Source of the DNA: Escherichia phage EC.W1-9
Sequence record: PP445227.1
Reading direction: 5' to 3' (one strand)
DNA length: 40,616 bases
In this document: positions 9,324-40,044 of the stretch, in pieces
How positions within the stretch are numbered: the first letter of the stretch is position 1
Layout of the letters: each line of letters opens with the position of its first letter
The notes under the pieces: generated by a model
Told to the model about the DNA's origin: nothing
Databases searched by the model: none
The model's input: only the letters and a program-made list of their open reading frames with translations
Position numbers and translations under genes: made by a program

Positions 9324-9400
9324 TGGCGTGGCATGCAGGATTCGAACCTGCGACCAACCGCTTAGAAGGCGGTTGCTCTGTCCAACTGAGCTAATGCCAC
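9324..9400 (-). tRNA. tRNA-Arg (anticodon UCU)
   Basis: Reverse complement folds as a cloverleaf: acceptor GTGGCAT/ATGCCAC, D-arm GCTC…GAGC, anticodon stem ACCGC/GCGGT with loop CTTCTAA, T-arm GCAGG-TTCGAAT-CCTGC, discriminator G, encoded CCA; 77 nt. Confidence 0.85.
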
Positions 9401-26007: not shown

Positions 26008-26556
26008 TTACTTTTCTTCAGGTTTGTTGTCTTCAGATTTCTTCTTGATGCTTGGTTTTTGTCTAAGAACGAAAATACCAGCCACTGCAACAACTGTACC
26101 GATCACTGTGCCAGCTAGAACTTCATGACCTGTTAAACCTAATAATGTTGCACAAGCTACTGTAAAAATAGTTGCACTCAGGCCAAACCACTGCCCACGT
26201 TTATCTCTATTAATAGCCCCGTCAAGTGCCTTTTCCTCCATTTTCTGGCGGTGAGCAAACTCCTTCTCCGTCAGCTGGAAGATGCGTTCGGGGGCATCAG
26301 GTAAAATATCCTGATACCCGCGAAGCAGATAGGGGGGAGGAAGCGGACCCTGAAACGCATGGTGAGCGACAACTATCTCCTGAATTTCAGGGCGATCAAG
26401 AACTCTTGTGAAGGCATCTGGGTGTTGAATGATCTCGTTACTTAGCCCTTCCTCAACTTCCTCGAACTCAGTTTCTTCGTTATCACTTGGTTGCCCAATA
26501 GATTTTTGCATATTTGTCGAAGGACATTCCTTTAGCTTCTGGTTTTCCTCTTGCAT
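26008..26556 (-). CDS. Membrane protein (acidic N-terminal domain, two C-terminal TM helices)
   Basis: 182-aa ORF; C-terminal WFGLSATIFTVACATLLGL…TVIGTVVAVAGIFVL hydrophobic segments; sequence style reminiscent of DUF2335 proteins (recalled, uncertain). Confidence 0.5.
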   Translation of the reverse strand: MQEENQKLKECPSTNMQKSIGQPSDNEETEFEEVEEGLSNEIIQHPDAFTRVLDRPEIQEIVVAHHAFQGPLPPPYLLRGYQDILPDAPERIFQLTEKEFAHRQKMEEKALDGAINRDKRGQWFGLSATIFTVACATLLGLTGHEVLAGTVIGTVVAVAGIFVLRQKPSIKKKSEDNKPEEK

Positions 26557-27623: not shown

Positions 27624-27889
27624 AGCGATCACCTTTGTAGTTAGGTTAATCACCACCGCTGAGACCAATCAGATGGTGGTGAACTGTGCAGAGTTGGTCT
27701 TACCGGCTACAAAGGAACCCGGCGCACCTTTCGGTGCCCCCACACAGCCCACCATAGAATAGGTGCGCTTTACACATAAAAAAACCGCTTATGCGGCATA
27801 TGTGCCTCTGTAGTAATCCGGGAGACCAATCCCGGCACTGGATTTTGCCAGTGCCCGATTACTATGGCACAAGAGGAGTGCAATGTAAA

Positions 27890-27904
27890 TTTACCGAAAA
27901 GGTA
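27890..27904. promoter_or_regulatory. Palindromic site TTACC-N5-GGTAA
   Basis: TTACCgaaaaGGTAAT; TATATGGTTTGAT follows about 35 bp downstream. Confidence 0.5.
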
Positions 27905-28066
27905 ATAATAAATGCATAACTCACGTTATTTCAACCCTATATGGTTTGATTTATCCCATTTCAGAAAATACCTGCCTATTTTTTTGCCAGTATGCGTATA
28001 CTTTCGATAGAATGTTTACCCTAGAGGTAGTTGGGGGTGCCCGTGAACACGAAGAGAGCTACAGTA

Positions 28067-28486
28067 ATGCAGCATTTGAGGAAATCAGAAAAAAATAAAG
28101 ACCATGAAATATTGAGTAAGGCCATTGTTCGGGCTTCCAATAATACTGTTATACCTCATGCTGAAGAGTCTGGACAGAAATTTCTTATTCGGTATTTCAC
28201 TGAAAATAGTGCAGTTGAGGAGATTTTAAAACATCAGGGAGGGGAATTTAAATGTGGAAAACTGGCAGATTATGTTCGTCGTGAAACGTCTGAACAAGAA
28301 GTATATTATGCTGATATTAATCATAAGTCAGGTGTGAAAATTGTAATAGGCTATTACACAACTCCCAAAAATGTTATGCATGAGGTCCCAAAGATGTCCG
28401 TCGAGAAATCTCATGCAATCTCGCGCAGGATGTTTGCACGCACTGCCGAAGATATGGCTCAGGAGCTCTACGACGATGCTGAATAA
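28067..28486 (+). CDS. Hypothetical protein, first gene of a two-gene accessory cassette
   Basis: ATG at 28067 after GAAGAGAG; 139 aa; overlaps the next gene by 11 nt. Confidence 0.5.
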   Translation: MQHLRKSEKNKDHEILSKAIVRASNNTVIPHAEESGQKFLIRYFTENSAVEEILKHQGGEFKCGKLADYVRRETSEQEVYYADINHKSGVKIVIGYYTTPKNVMHEVPKMSVEKSHAISRRMFARTAEDMAQELYDDAE

Positions 28487-28982
28487 ATTCCAGGGGTTGG
28501 TTCACCCTGGAATTTTTGGGAAGGACCCTGAGCTAATACCTATCAAAAACGCGTTCATAGATCACTGGCGCTACGGTCATCATAAGGATTTCGGAAAGGA
28601 CACTCTGTTTCGGGATCCACCGAAAGAAATGCTGGAATATCACATACGCCACGTTCACGTAAACATCGGAAACTATACTGACAAGTTTGGTGAGAGCGGT
28701 ACGGAACAATGCTGGAAAAACTGGGCGTCTGGGAAGAAAGACAAGACCACTAACAAGCATAAAAAGATCCCAACCAGTGACGTGTATGTGATTTATCTGG
28801 TCACATCTGAACGCCATGCCTTCCTTCTGGATTATTGGGATGAACCAGCACATAAGACAGTAGAAATTGACGAGCAGAAGCAAAAATTAGTTGTCGAGTG
28901 TGACAGAATTTTGCGGCTGAAAAAGTTAGAATCCATGCCGCGCGATGCTAGTTTGTGGGACCCAGAATTTTACGACTGTTAA
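28476..28982 (+). CDS. Hypothetical protein, possible toxin-like component (weak YafO-like motifs)
   Basis: 168 aa; motifs HVHVN and AFLLDYWDEPAHK resemble YafO-family toxin blocks as recalled from memory; followed by a terminator. Confidence 0.4.
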   Translation: MLNKFQGLVHPGIFGKDPELIPIKNAFIDHWRYGHHKDFGKDTLFRDPPKEMLEYHIRHVHVNIGNYTDKFGESGTEQCWKNWASGKKDKTTNKHKKIPTSDVYVIYLVTSERHAFLLDYWDEPAHKTVEIDEQKQKLVVECDRILRLKKLESMPRDASLWDPEFYDC

Positions 28983-28983
28983 T

Positions 28984-29008
28984 GGCCGCTTTCGCGGCCT
29001 TTTCTTTA
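28984..29008 (+). terminator. Rho-independent terminator (GGCCGC-tttc-GCGGCC + TTTTCTTTA)
   Basis: Same 16-nt hairpin as at 25731. Confidence 0.6.
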
Positions 29009-29263
29009 TGTGGTTTGTTTTCGTAATTGTTCGGCACAATAGTCGAGATGTGTTTGCAGATCCTGCATAGACATCTGTGAGCTGGTGACGTAGTTAATCA
29101 GTGCAGTCAGTTCGGCAAGTGGGCCATCGACATTAAATCCATCCTTATCGAGATCCCGGAGTAATTTCATCAAGTGCGATCCCTCCACCAGTGACCTGAC
29201 GCCTCCCGGCGTGTGAATCCTTTCGGTAAATCCGTCTTCCAGTGGATAGTGATACTGCTGCAT
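29006..29263 (-). CDS. Small protein paralogous to the antirepressor C-terminal domain
   Basis: ERIHTPGGVRSLVEGSHLMKLLRDLDKDGFNVDGPLAELTALINYV aligns by eye with the C-terminus of the 26931-27623 protein; ATG at 29263 after GGAGAAG. Confidence 0.5.
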   Translation of the reverse strand: MQQYHYPLEDGFTERIHTPGGVRSLVEGSHLMKLLRDLDKDGFNVDGPLAELTALINYVTSSQMSMQDLQTHLDYCAEQLRKQTT

Positions 29264-29339
29264 CTTATCTTCTCCATGCAATAACTGTATGTTTATACAG
29301 TAACAAATAATTTGTTTGCTATCCAGCACGTTTTGCAAA

Positions 29340-34243: not shown

Positions 34244-34258
34244 TTACCTTAAAGGTAT
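34244..34258. promoter_or_regulatory. Palindromic site TTACC-N5-GGTAt (imperfect)
   Basis: ATTACCttaaaGGTATA upstream of the integrase. Confidence 0.4.
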
Positions 34259-34300: not shown

Positions 34301-35551
34301 GTGCTTACCGATACAAAATTAAAAAACCTCAAGCCGCAGGACAAACTGTACAAGGTCTCCGATCGTGACGGGCTGTATGTAGCTGTGCTTACGTCAGGCA
34401 CGGTCTCATTTCGTTATGACTACCGTATCAACGGTCGCCGCGAAACACTGGTAATCGGGCAGTATGGGCGTGACGGTATCAGCCTGGCAGAAGCGCGGGA
34501 AGAACTGATTGCTGCAAAGAAGCTGCTTAAAGCAGGCCAGTCACCGGCTGCGGCTAAACGTGACGGTATCAAAAAGATTCGTGGTGCCGAAACGTTTGCG
34601 GTACATACCGACAGTTATATGAAACACGTCATCCTGGCTGAAAGTACCCGCGCAATGAAGCAGGCAGTGATCGACCGTGACATACTTCCGGTTCTTGGCA
34701 ACAAAATGATGGCTGAAATTACCACATCGATGGTTCGTGATTTGTGTGACCGGATTGTCGAACGCGGTGGCCGGGCAACAGCAGTGCAGGCCAGGGAGAT
34801 CATCAGCAGCGTATACCGTCACGCCAATGACCGTGGTCATGGTTTGTTTAATCCTGCGGCTGACATTAAGCCTTCGTCTATCGCCATATTTAAACCACGA
34901 GAGCGAACACTGACACCAGAAGAAATTGGCCTGTTCTTCCGCACGTTGGATGCCATTGGTGCTATGGGCACTATGAAAATGGCTTTAAAACTGGTGCTTA
35001 TCACTATGGTTCGTAAGGGCGAATTCACCAATGCAACGTGGGATGAAATAGATTTTAAAAAATGGACATGGACAATTCCTTCAGACCGCATGAAGGGAAG
35101 CCGGGCGCATGTTATTTACCTGCCTAAACAGGCTCAGGATATATTGGTCGGGTTGCAGATGTGCGCTGGTGGAAGTGAATATCTGGTTCCTGGTCGTTAC
35201 AATTTCCGGAAGCCATTATCTAATGCCGCGCTGAACTCTCTGATCGACAGAACGGTGAAAATAATAAATGAAGATGGTGAGCATATTCAGGATTTCACCG
35301 TACACGATATGCGCCGTACAGCCAGTACGTTGTTGCATGAGGCTGGTTATCCTTCAGACTGGATTGAAAAGGCTCTGGCACATGAGCAGAAAGGTGTGCG
35401 CGCCGTATATAACAAAGCGGAATACGCCAGACAGCGCGCCTACATGTTGCAGCAGTGGGCCGATATGATAGATTCCTGGATTAACGGGGAGCATACGGAT
35501 CTGATTCCGTTCTCCCCGTCGAAGTTTGAGAAGTGGATGGCGAGGGAATAA
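34301..35551 (+). CDS. int: Tyrosine integrase
   Basis: N-terminus (M)LTDTKLKNLKP…DGLYVAV typical of the DUF4102-type integrase arm domain; C-terminal catalytic region with HDMRRT and AHEQ…VRAVYNKAEY (Tyr) signatures. Confidence 0.85.
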   Translation: MLTDTKLKNLKPQDKLYKVSDRDGLYVAVLTSGTVSFRYDYRINGRRETLVIGQYGRDGISLAEAREELIAAKKLLKAGQSPAAAKRDGIKKIRGAETFAVHTDSYMKHVILAESTRAMKQAVIDRDILPVLGNKMMAEITTSMVRDLCDRIVERGGRATAVQAREIISSVYRHANDRGHGLFNPAADIKPSSIAIFKPRERTLTPEEIGLFFRTLDAIGAMGTMKMALKLVLITMVRKGEFTNATWDEIDFKKWTWTIPSDRMKGSRAHVIYLPKQAQDILVGLQMCAGGSEYLVPGRYNFRKPLSNAALNSLIDRTVKIINEDGEHIQDFTVHDMRRTASTLLHEAGYPSDWIEKALAHEQKGVRAVYNKAEYARQRAYMLQQWADMIDSWINGEHTDLIPFSPSKFEKWMARE

Positions 35552-39459: not shown

Positions 39460-40044
39460 TTATTGTTTGTTTTTTTCGTTCTGGTTGATGACAAATTCAA
39501 TGTAACTTTCGATCTTTGCTTTCTCGGTTTCGGGTAACAATGCGTAGCGCGAGCGATCATAGTTGATGGTCGCAGGGTCGTGCGGGTGAATCAGTAATTC
39601 ATAGCCGTGACGCCCGAATGCGGATGCAACATTCTCCAGGGTGGAAATGGAAACGCTGACCTCATTGTTTAACAGGCGGCTGATTGTCACCTGGGCTACG
39701 CCGGATGCGCGGTGAAGTTTTCCCTGTGTTGAAAGGTCGCGGCTTTCGCTCATCCAGCGTTCCAGGTTGTGAGCCGCCAGCTGGCCAATGTCGCTTGGGC
39801 CGACAGGCTGAAAACCTTCCTGAGAAAGCGAGCGATCGATATCAAGCCAGTTACGGGGTTTATTGGCGGCAGCTTCAATTTTTCGCGCAACCTGATCGCC
39901 GATAACCTTCTTACCAAGAGCCCAGCGGTTTACCAGATTTGCCTGAGTTCCAAGTTTTTCAGCCATCCGCGTCTGAACACCATTGAATTCACGGTCGATC
40001 AAGTCGTTGAGATTTTGCCTGCGGACGTCCTGGATACTTTTCAT
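39460..40044 (-). CDS. Repressor-like DNA-binding protein with two HTH-like segments
   Basis: 194 aa; segments LGTQANLVNRWALGKKVIGDQVARKIE and SGVAQVTISRLLNNEVSVSISTLENVASAFG look like XRE-type HTH units; divergent from a Cro-like gene across a triple-site region; no S24 peptidase motif noticed. Confidence 0.5.
   Translation of the reverse strand: MKSIQDVRRQNLNDLIDREFNGVQTRMAEKLGTQANLVNRWALGKKVIGDQVARKIEAAANKPRNWLDIDRSLSQEGFQPVGPSDIGQLAAHNLERWMSESRDLSTQGKLHRASGVAQVTISRLLNNEVSVSISTLENVASAFGRHGYELLIHPHDPATINYDRSRYALLPETEKAKIESYIEFVINQNEKNKQ

Follow-up and report, generated by a model that had tools for sequence, protein, structure and literature searches.

The YafN–YafO pair of Escherichia coli K-12 is the closest described relative of the locus considered here. 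YafO is toxic, YafN rescues, and translated mRNA is cleaved (PMC2814082). The YafO family (PF_YafO) is small, with ~1,000 members in antitoxin-first order, and a caveat applies to its ribosome dependence (2025 review, PMC11980606). We analysed a two-gene cassette in Escherichia phage EC.W1-9 (PP445227.1), taking as the window the whole stretch of 40,616 nucleotides. An earlier, sequence-only reading had proposed that the cassette encodes a toxin-antitoxin or defence pair, and had noted a weak likeness of its second protein to YafO. The best-supported interpretation of our sequence comparisons is that the region would be a two-gene type II toxin-antitoxin-like module carried as exchangeable prophage cargo. 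In its fuller form, this interpretation pairs an mRNA endonuclease of YafO/RelE fold with a new antitoxin bearing a neutralising C-terminal helix and has the cargo probably gated by the prophage repressor; we regard it as likely, though short of firm. The coding features of the cassette are as follows.

28043–28486, + strand: gene 1, putative antitoxin, 147 amino acids from a GTG at 28043 (RefSeq start)
28067–28486, + strand: shorter form of gene 1, 139 amino acids from an ATG at 28067 (start taken in the sequence-only reading)
28076–28375, + strand: hypervariable, recombination-swapped segment of gene 1 (N-terminal ~100 residues), a DNA mosaic
28385–28483, + strand: conserved 33-residue C-terminal tail of gene 1, VPKMSVEKSHAISRRMFARTAEDMAQELYDDAE, predicted to form a helix that neutralises the toxin
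28476–28982, + strand: gene 2, putative YafO-superfamily toxin, 168 amino acids (RefSeq WP_024946528.1)
28485–28515, + strand: perfect 11-bp RNA hairpin over the gene 1 stop codon and gene 2 codons 4–14

The two open reading frames originally described, of 139 and 168 amino acids (28067–28486 and 28476–28982) with an 11-nt overlap, are present. The GTG at 28043 is the likelier start of gene 1 because homologues have an ATG there and, in one locus (L008), a GGAGG Shine-Dalgarno sequence precedes it. An antisense open reading frame at 28533–28883 was rejected as lacking support.

The HVHVN and AFLLDYWDEPAHK blocks that had suggested YafO are found in gene 2, and the likeness is borne out by family-level Pfam matches, a profile-profile match and a RelE/HigB fold. 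The RefSeq entry for the identical protein is named 'type II toxin-antitoxin system YafO family toxin'. Only 14 close relatives of gene 2 were found among 5.8 billion clusters; an exhaustive profile search returned 71 relatives. All ten full-length close relatives (41–79% identical) match PF13957 (YafO_toxin) at 17.6–25.4 bits, with only P0005 reaching the 25-bit gathering threshold, and 32 of the 53 aligned members of the extended family match it at E ≤ 0.01. A profile of the 26 strongest 'long' members, from which K-12 YafO was excluded, matched an independent YafO alignment with 96% probability and an E-value of 3.5e-9 (profile-profile comparison, hhalign), the alignment spanning residues 8–146 versus 2–129 of the 132 in YafO. 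In the joint alignment with YafO, residues F27, G40 (in FGKD), H61, Y107 and H126 are invariant, and relatives of 41–100% identity show strong conservation at His, Arg, Tyr and Trp positions. Structural comparison places gene 2 in the RelE/BECR fold, its best matches being HigB and RelE toxins; PDB sequence searches with the gene 2 family returned nothing relevant. Compared to YafO, gene 2 carries an extra ~35-residue insertion with conserved Cys and Trp, as well as a C-terminal extension. It also matches PHROG 1651, of unknown function. Judged by these alignments, gene 2 is a genuine but remote member of the YafO superfamily that lies below the curated Pfam threshold.

The two genes are co-oriented, small and arranged antitoxin-first, and the arrangement is conserved. 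Among 45 related loci, drawn from E. coli, Klebsiella, Pluralibacter, Serratia and IMG/VR viral contigs, the upstream partner is kept in all 45 and the order is antitoxin-then-toxin throughout. The partner and toxin genes overlap by 11 or 14 nt in 44 of these loci, and the most remote (L056) has a 5-nt gap. A scan of genome contigs yielded one locus. The proteins also co-vary: three clades of the gene 1 tail follow three toxin clades, with the common C-terminal pattern KMS...S..[IL]S...[FY]D..E. In a comparison of six representative pairs, toxin identity correlated with identity in the tail (Spearman rho 0.71) but not with identity in the N-terminus (rho 0.08); as the pairs are not independent, these values are descriptive. 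Such co-variation of the tail would be the behaviour expected of a toxin-binding antitoxin segment. The toxin-antitoxin half of the original proposal appears well supported by homology and co-variation, with pairing in 45/45 loci; its defence half is without a PADLOC match.

What distinguishes gene 1 is the contrast between its two parts. The tail, VPKMSVEKSxAISRRMFARTAEDMAQELYDDAE, is almost invariant across 25 relatives, while the ~100 residues before it are 35–50% identical or unalignable among them. In several loci with a promoter 92–93% and a toxin gene 99% identical to those of the window, DNA similarity in the middle of gene 1 drops to background (65–70%). The resulting mosaics (L005, L008, L020–L031) have an unrelated middle between conserved 5′ and 3′ ends, and the variable segments reassort against 94% and 99% toxin alleles. 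Between two variants whose promoters are identical, N-terminal identity is 38%. A constant tail on a swapped body is consistent with an antitoxin whose C-terminal helix neutralises the toxin and whose N-terminal module can be exchanged, and gene 1 is probably the antitoxin partner of gene 2. The view that the first protein has no recognisable family held, as Pfam, NCBIfam and PADLOC gave nothing; PDB likewise contains no detected relative. Gene 1 corresponds to PHROG 9503, of unknown function, and the other partner variants showed no domain in Pfam or PHROG scans.

The gene junction carries a further feature. The start codon of gene 2 is preceded by AGGAG at a fairly long distance of 10 nt, and the hairpin at 28485–28515 covers the junction itself. 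In the L008/L031 lineage, two hairpin base pairs are changed on both sides, and the changes in the 3′ arm are synonymous (a small sample). These compensatory pairs suggest selection for a structure that ties gene 2 translation to ribosomes finishing gene 1. Conservation of the hairpin does not extend to clades B and C, so we report it as a feature of clade A only.

The regulatory and boundary features of the cassette are as follows.

27891–27905, no strand: inverted repeat TTACC-GAAAA-GGTAA, in backbone DNA outside the insert
27938–27952, + strand: left arm of the flanking direct repeat, TATATGGTTTGATTT, 13/15 identical to the right arm
27984–28013, + strand: cassette promoter of sigma-70 type, TTGCCA-18-TAGAAT, 10/12 matches, in cassette-specific DNA
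28016–28030, no strand: second palindrome copy, TTACC-CTAGA-GGTAG, one mismatch, 3 nt after the -10 element of the cassette promoter
28984–29009, + strand: intrinsic terminator GGCCGC-TTTC-GCGGCC plus T-run, a 6-bp all-GC hairpin
29007–29021, + strand: right arm of the flanking direct repeat, TATGTGGTTTGTTTT, 13/15 identical to the left arm

The TTGCCA-18-TAGAAT element, which is conserved in clade A relatives, is inferred to function as the cassette promoter. The strong terminator originally placed after gene 2 was confirmed as the all-GC hairpin and T-run at 28984–29009. TL-2011b has it too, there following a different cargo; the empty phiV10 site lacks it.

The earlier view of how the cassette is regulated fared less well. 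The inverted repeat quoted as ATTACC-N5-GGTAAT exists, but it reads tTTACC-GAAAA-GGTAAt, with perfect 5-bp arms TTACC/GGTAA. Nor is it a regulatory site of the cassette's own: it lies ~160 nt upstream of gene 1 in backbone DNA, belongs to a set of 17 copies and serves a divergent promoter for isrK-like RNA, C4 RNA and antirepressor. The repeat at 27891–27905 is also found in phiV10 and TL-2011b, both of which are without the cassette; as backbone DNA in such phages, it was rejected as a cassette operator. The TATATGGTTTGAT element noted alongside it is present (27938–27950), but it forms part of the left arm of the flanking direct repeat and is a recurrent element of the backbone. Overlooked at that stage was the second palindrome copy, 28016–28030, the only palindrome that stands at the cassette's own promoter. 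An equivalent palindrome is found beside the -10 element in the diverged cassettes of clades A, B and C, although some variants are without it (L008, L012, L031 and L032). The clade A copy is always mismatched (GGTAG).

The palindrome is a phage-wide motif. Allowing at most one mismatch, TTACC-N5-GGTAA occurs 17 times in the window versus 0.61 expected, a ~28-fold excess, and eight of the 17 sites overlap promoter-like sites versus 0.9 expected. Pairs of sites flank a double-helix-turn-helix repressor gene (39460–40044, − strand). Both this palindrome and a second motif, TATRTGGTT, recur as follows.

1815, 1877, 6369, 6387, 9106, 9730, 26831, 27891, 28016: palindrome sites, part 1
29340, 32310, 34244, 39326, 39388, 40100, 40148, 40485: palindrome sites, part 2
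1863, 9788, 27938, 29007, 29386, 39351, + strand: window-wide TATRTGGTT copies

The palindrome is probably the operator of the prophage repressor. In ZX5, overexpression of the homologous repressor and Bro-N antirepressor affects lysis and lysogeny (PMC9782041). Because the second copy covers the transcription start, expression of the cassette would probably be tied to the prophage repressor and not controlled by the antitoxin alone. The six TATRTGGTT copies (0.43 expected) are all on the + strand, and five of them follow a TTACC-N5-GGTAA site at a distance of 10–43 nt. Two positions in the window, 27938 and 39351, carry the exact 13-mer TATATGGTTTGAT. The TATRTGGTT motif may serve as a promoter element, mark a recombination boundary or bind a protein.

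The window is an apparently complete prophage of phiV10/epsilon15 type (genus Uetakevirus) from E. coli. The flanks of the insert are 92–97% identical to phiV10, TL-2011b, ZX5 and related phages, and in an identical E. coli segment annotated in RefSeq the cassette is surrounded by tail genes, the Bro-N antirepressor gene, the tailspike gene and lysis genes. Homology to phiV10 stops at ~27949 and restarts at ~29007, and the insert measures 1,069 bp (~1.07 kb) between the direct-repeat junctions. The empty phiV10 site has a single copy of the flanking repeat. The cassette, which is oriented against both neighbouring genes, is missing from phiV10 and most relatives, and in TL-2011b, which shares the left frame and the terminator, the slot between them is filled by an unrelated cargo. 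Of 5,426 complete E. coli genomes, 544 contain the flanks and 58 the cassette, which is chromosomal in every case; no close gene 2 homologue was found in deposited phage genomes. Bearers of the cassette belong to clinically common E. coli lineages, among them the strains ST648, IHE3034 and APEC O18.

Taken together, these features outline a mechanism. Both genes would be co-transcribed from the sigma-70 promoter inside the cassette, with transcription ending at the strong terminator, and the 11-nt overlap and, in this clade, the junction hairpin would link their translation. By homology, gene 2 would cut mRNA and so stop translation, with H61, Y107, H126 and other conserved His, Tyr and Arg residues as the likely catalytic set. 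The C-terminal ~33-residue helix of gene 1 would bind and neutralise the toxin, and its N-terminal ~100 residues would serve as an exchangeable module. Stabilisation of the prophage is a further possible role of the pair.

Several observations weigh against this model. The gene 2 protein itself has no match in Pfam, NCBIfam or PADLOC and does not match PF13957 even at E ≤ 10. Thus, the Pfam search proposed in the sequence-only reading matched neither protein of the window, although relatives of gene 2 do match that family. By BLASTP, gene 2 aligns with K-12 YafO over 54 residues only, at 31% identity, around FG(K/R)D and H-x-H. A narrower profile of eleven sequences (gene 2 and its ten closest relatives) gave 62% probability and an E-value of 7.7e-5 versus YafO; the single-sequence hhalign comparison of gene 2 with K-12 YafO, at 7% probability, is uninformative. 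Gene 2 has an isoelectric point of 6.8 and is not basic; for this reason, together with its insertion and C-terminal extension, its target could differ from that of YafO. A proposed charge complementarity between toxin and tail was dropped because of the same value. For gene 1, BLASTP against YafN returned nothing, such that it shows no tie to YafN-type (Phd/YefM) antitoxins, and no DNA-binding domain was detected in it. Its AlphaFold2 model, in which a C-terminal helix is predicted at residues 112–137, is of low confidence (pLDDT 46), too poor to justify a fold search. Finally, a probable repressor operator on the promoter prompts the question whether the pair is expressed in a lysogen at all. 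Under a tight operator, the pair may be silent in lysogens, which would not be typical of addiction or defence modules.

The last point bears on how the pair might act. In one alternative, the pair serves defence or abortive infection: it would be expressed from the prophage, the gene 1 N-terminus would sense an invader product or be its target, and the released RNase would shut down translation. A hypervariable N-terminus recombining on a constant toxin and tail is an arms-race pattern, RelE-superfamily toxins are documented in defence (PMC11980606), and the cassette lies near other toxin-antitoxin cargo, which in relatives consists of HicA/DUF1902 and in TL-2011b of a second YafO-like gene. 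However, both proteins match 0 families at E ≤ 1 in PADLOC-DB 2.0, the probable operator over the promoter start in most variants argues against strong expression in lysogens, and neutral module shuffling could explain the N-terminal variability equally well; we consider a defence role unlikely. Less likely again is a modular sensor-antitoxin, in which the constant helix restrains the RNase, the swapped N-terminus sets the trigger, whether an invading phage protein or the phage's own induction step, and the whole is repressor-gated. If true, this would be a diversity-swapping toxin-antitoxin immunity cassette within the immunity region of epsilon15-like phages. The operator could instead point to the lytic cycle, with the cassette derepressed together with the antirepressor operon upon induction or infection, the RNase degrading host or competitor mRNA or enforcing lysis and gene 1 acting as timer or inhibitor. 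The palindrome does stand at the start of both divergent promoters (isrK/C4/ant and cassette), a repressor gene lies flanked by further copies, and the operator position is conserved in diverged cassettes. Yet the GGTAG mismatch in clade A may permit leaky expression, the variants L008, L012, L031 and L032 do without the site, the palindrome has only a presumed binding protein, and most phages of the group manage without the cassette, so that a lytic function strikes us as improbable.

It might also be argued that this is no toxin-antitoxin pair, gene 2 being a decayed or repurposed, non-toxic RelE-fold protein and gene 1 an unrelated operon neighbour. In favour of this view, no curated family threshold is reached by the gene 2 protein, which also carries a large insertion that YafO lacks, and one genome combines a frameshifted gene 2 with an intact gene 1. 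In that genome (L057; E. coli strain 755, NZ_CP183129.1), a 1-nt deletion equivalent to window position 28705 frameshifts gene 2 past residue 76, and gene 1 is intact and annotated. The frameshift could be a natural inactivation of the toxin or a sequencing or assembly error, and loss of a toxin with retention of its antitoxin is the expected decay of a real pair. The tail, moreover, co-varies with the toxin. Because the His, Arg, Tyr and Trp positions and the gene pairing are strictly conserved, a non-toxic, repurposed protein is very improbable. The type II toxin-antitoxin-like module remains our preferred reading.

The neighbourhood of the cassette provides additional context. The inverted repeat at 27891–27905 abuts the -10 element of a leftward promoter (27934..27905), which would drive an isrK-like RNA, a C4 antisense RNA and the Bro-N antirepressor gene. 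Rfam matches above the gathering score were obtained for the C4 antisense RNA (27672–27759, − strand; 78.6 bits) and the isrK Hfq-binding RNA (27778–27854, − strand; 74.7 bits), both just upstream of the antirepressor gene (27623–26931, − strand). At its 3′ end, the isrK-like match overlaps with an intrinsic terminator (27797–27784, − strand). The slot beyond the antirepressor gene likewise gathers toxin-antitoxin-like cargo across relatives. It holds HicA with DUF1902 in Klebsiella relatives (L013, 1906–2364) and, in the window, a DUF2335 membrane protein (26008–26556, − strand). TL-2011b (L002) has a second YafO-like gene (1381–1926, − strand; 32% identical, E 2e-15) with a 59-residue open reading frame upstream of it (1901–2080, − strand). 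To the right of the cassette lies an 85-residue homologue of phiV10 gp24 (29263–29006, − strand), with a LexA-box-like CTGTATGTTTATACAG directly upstream at 29285–29300; its product may be an SOS-controlled induction factor. Elsewhere, the palindrome copy at 34244, with one mismatch, precedes a tyrosine integrase gene (34301–35551), whose expression may be under the palindrome's regulator, and the prophage contains a tRNA gene (9327–9400, − strand; Rfam RF00005, 73.3 bits).

What is new here is modest: a partner family with a constant tail and swapped body, a long-form YafO branch and an operator on the promoter. As RefSeq already names the toxin and our results do not contradict standard toxin-antitoxin biology, the advance is incremental. 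If the interpretation is correct, gene 1 would found a new antitoxin family for YafO-type toxins, built on interchangeable N-terminal modules and recognisable by a ~33-residue C-terminal motif, KMS-x4-S-x2-[IL]S ... [FY]D-x2-E. Gene 2 would add a branch of longer proteins to the YafO family, which is small and has no solved structure. A toxin-antitoxin promoter apparently under a prophage repressor operator would also bear on whether such cargo acts in the lysogenic or the lytic state.

Comparison with known systems places the cassette closest to YafN–YafO. The toxins are homologous over almost the whole length of YafO, have the FG[KR]D, H-x-H, Y and [AP]H positions in common and are encoded second in an antitoxin-then-toxin order, the two genes overlapping slightly; translational arrest through mRNA cleavage would, by homology, be shared as well (PMC2814082). 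The systems differ in that YafO has 132 residues compared to 168 in gene 2, whose insertion follows the HVHV strand, and in that YafN is of Phd/YefM type while gene 1 is of no known family. In addition, YafN–YafO sits in the LexA-controlled dinB operon, whereas this pair is prophage cargo with a phage operator at its promoter. HigB/RelE mRNA interferases (e.g., HigB2, PDB 5mje) are only 7–16% identical to gene 2; the HigBA gene order is the reverse of that of the cassette, which also has no helix-turn-helix antitoxin.

Phage P1 and Gifsy-1 provide parallels for the surroundings. In P1, C1 operators are scattered round the genome, and the c4 antisense RNA, icd and ant are under C1 operator control. 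The window palindrome is similarly dispersed, with one copy at the cassette promoter, and the left neighbours of the cassette (isrK-like RNA, C4 RNA and Bro-N antirepressor) resemble P1 immI and Gifsy-1 isrK-anrP. This likeness does not extend to the two cassette genes; it concerns their neighbourhood and the regulatory motif. As an autonomous promoter-gene-terminator insert between backbone genes, the cassette also resembles phage morons. Unlike morons, it has a conserved frame, made up of the operator copy, the terminator and the TATRTGGTTTG repeat, within which the cargo changes, and unlike the constitutive promoter of a moron, its promoter is apparently wired into the repressor network of the phage.

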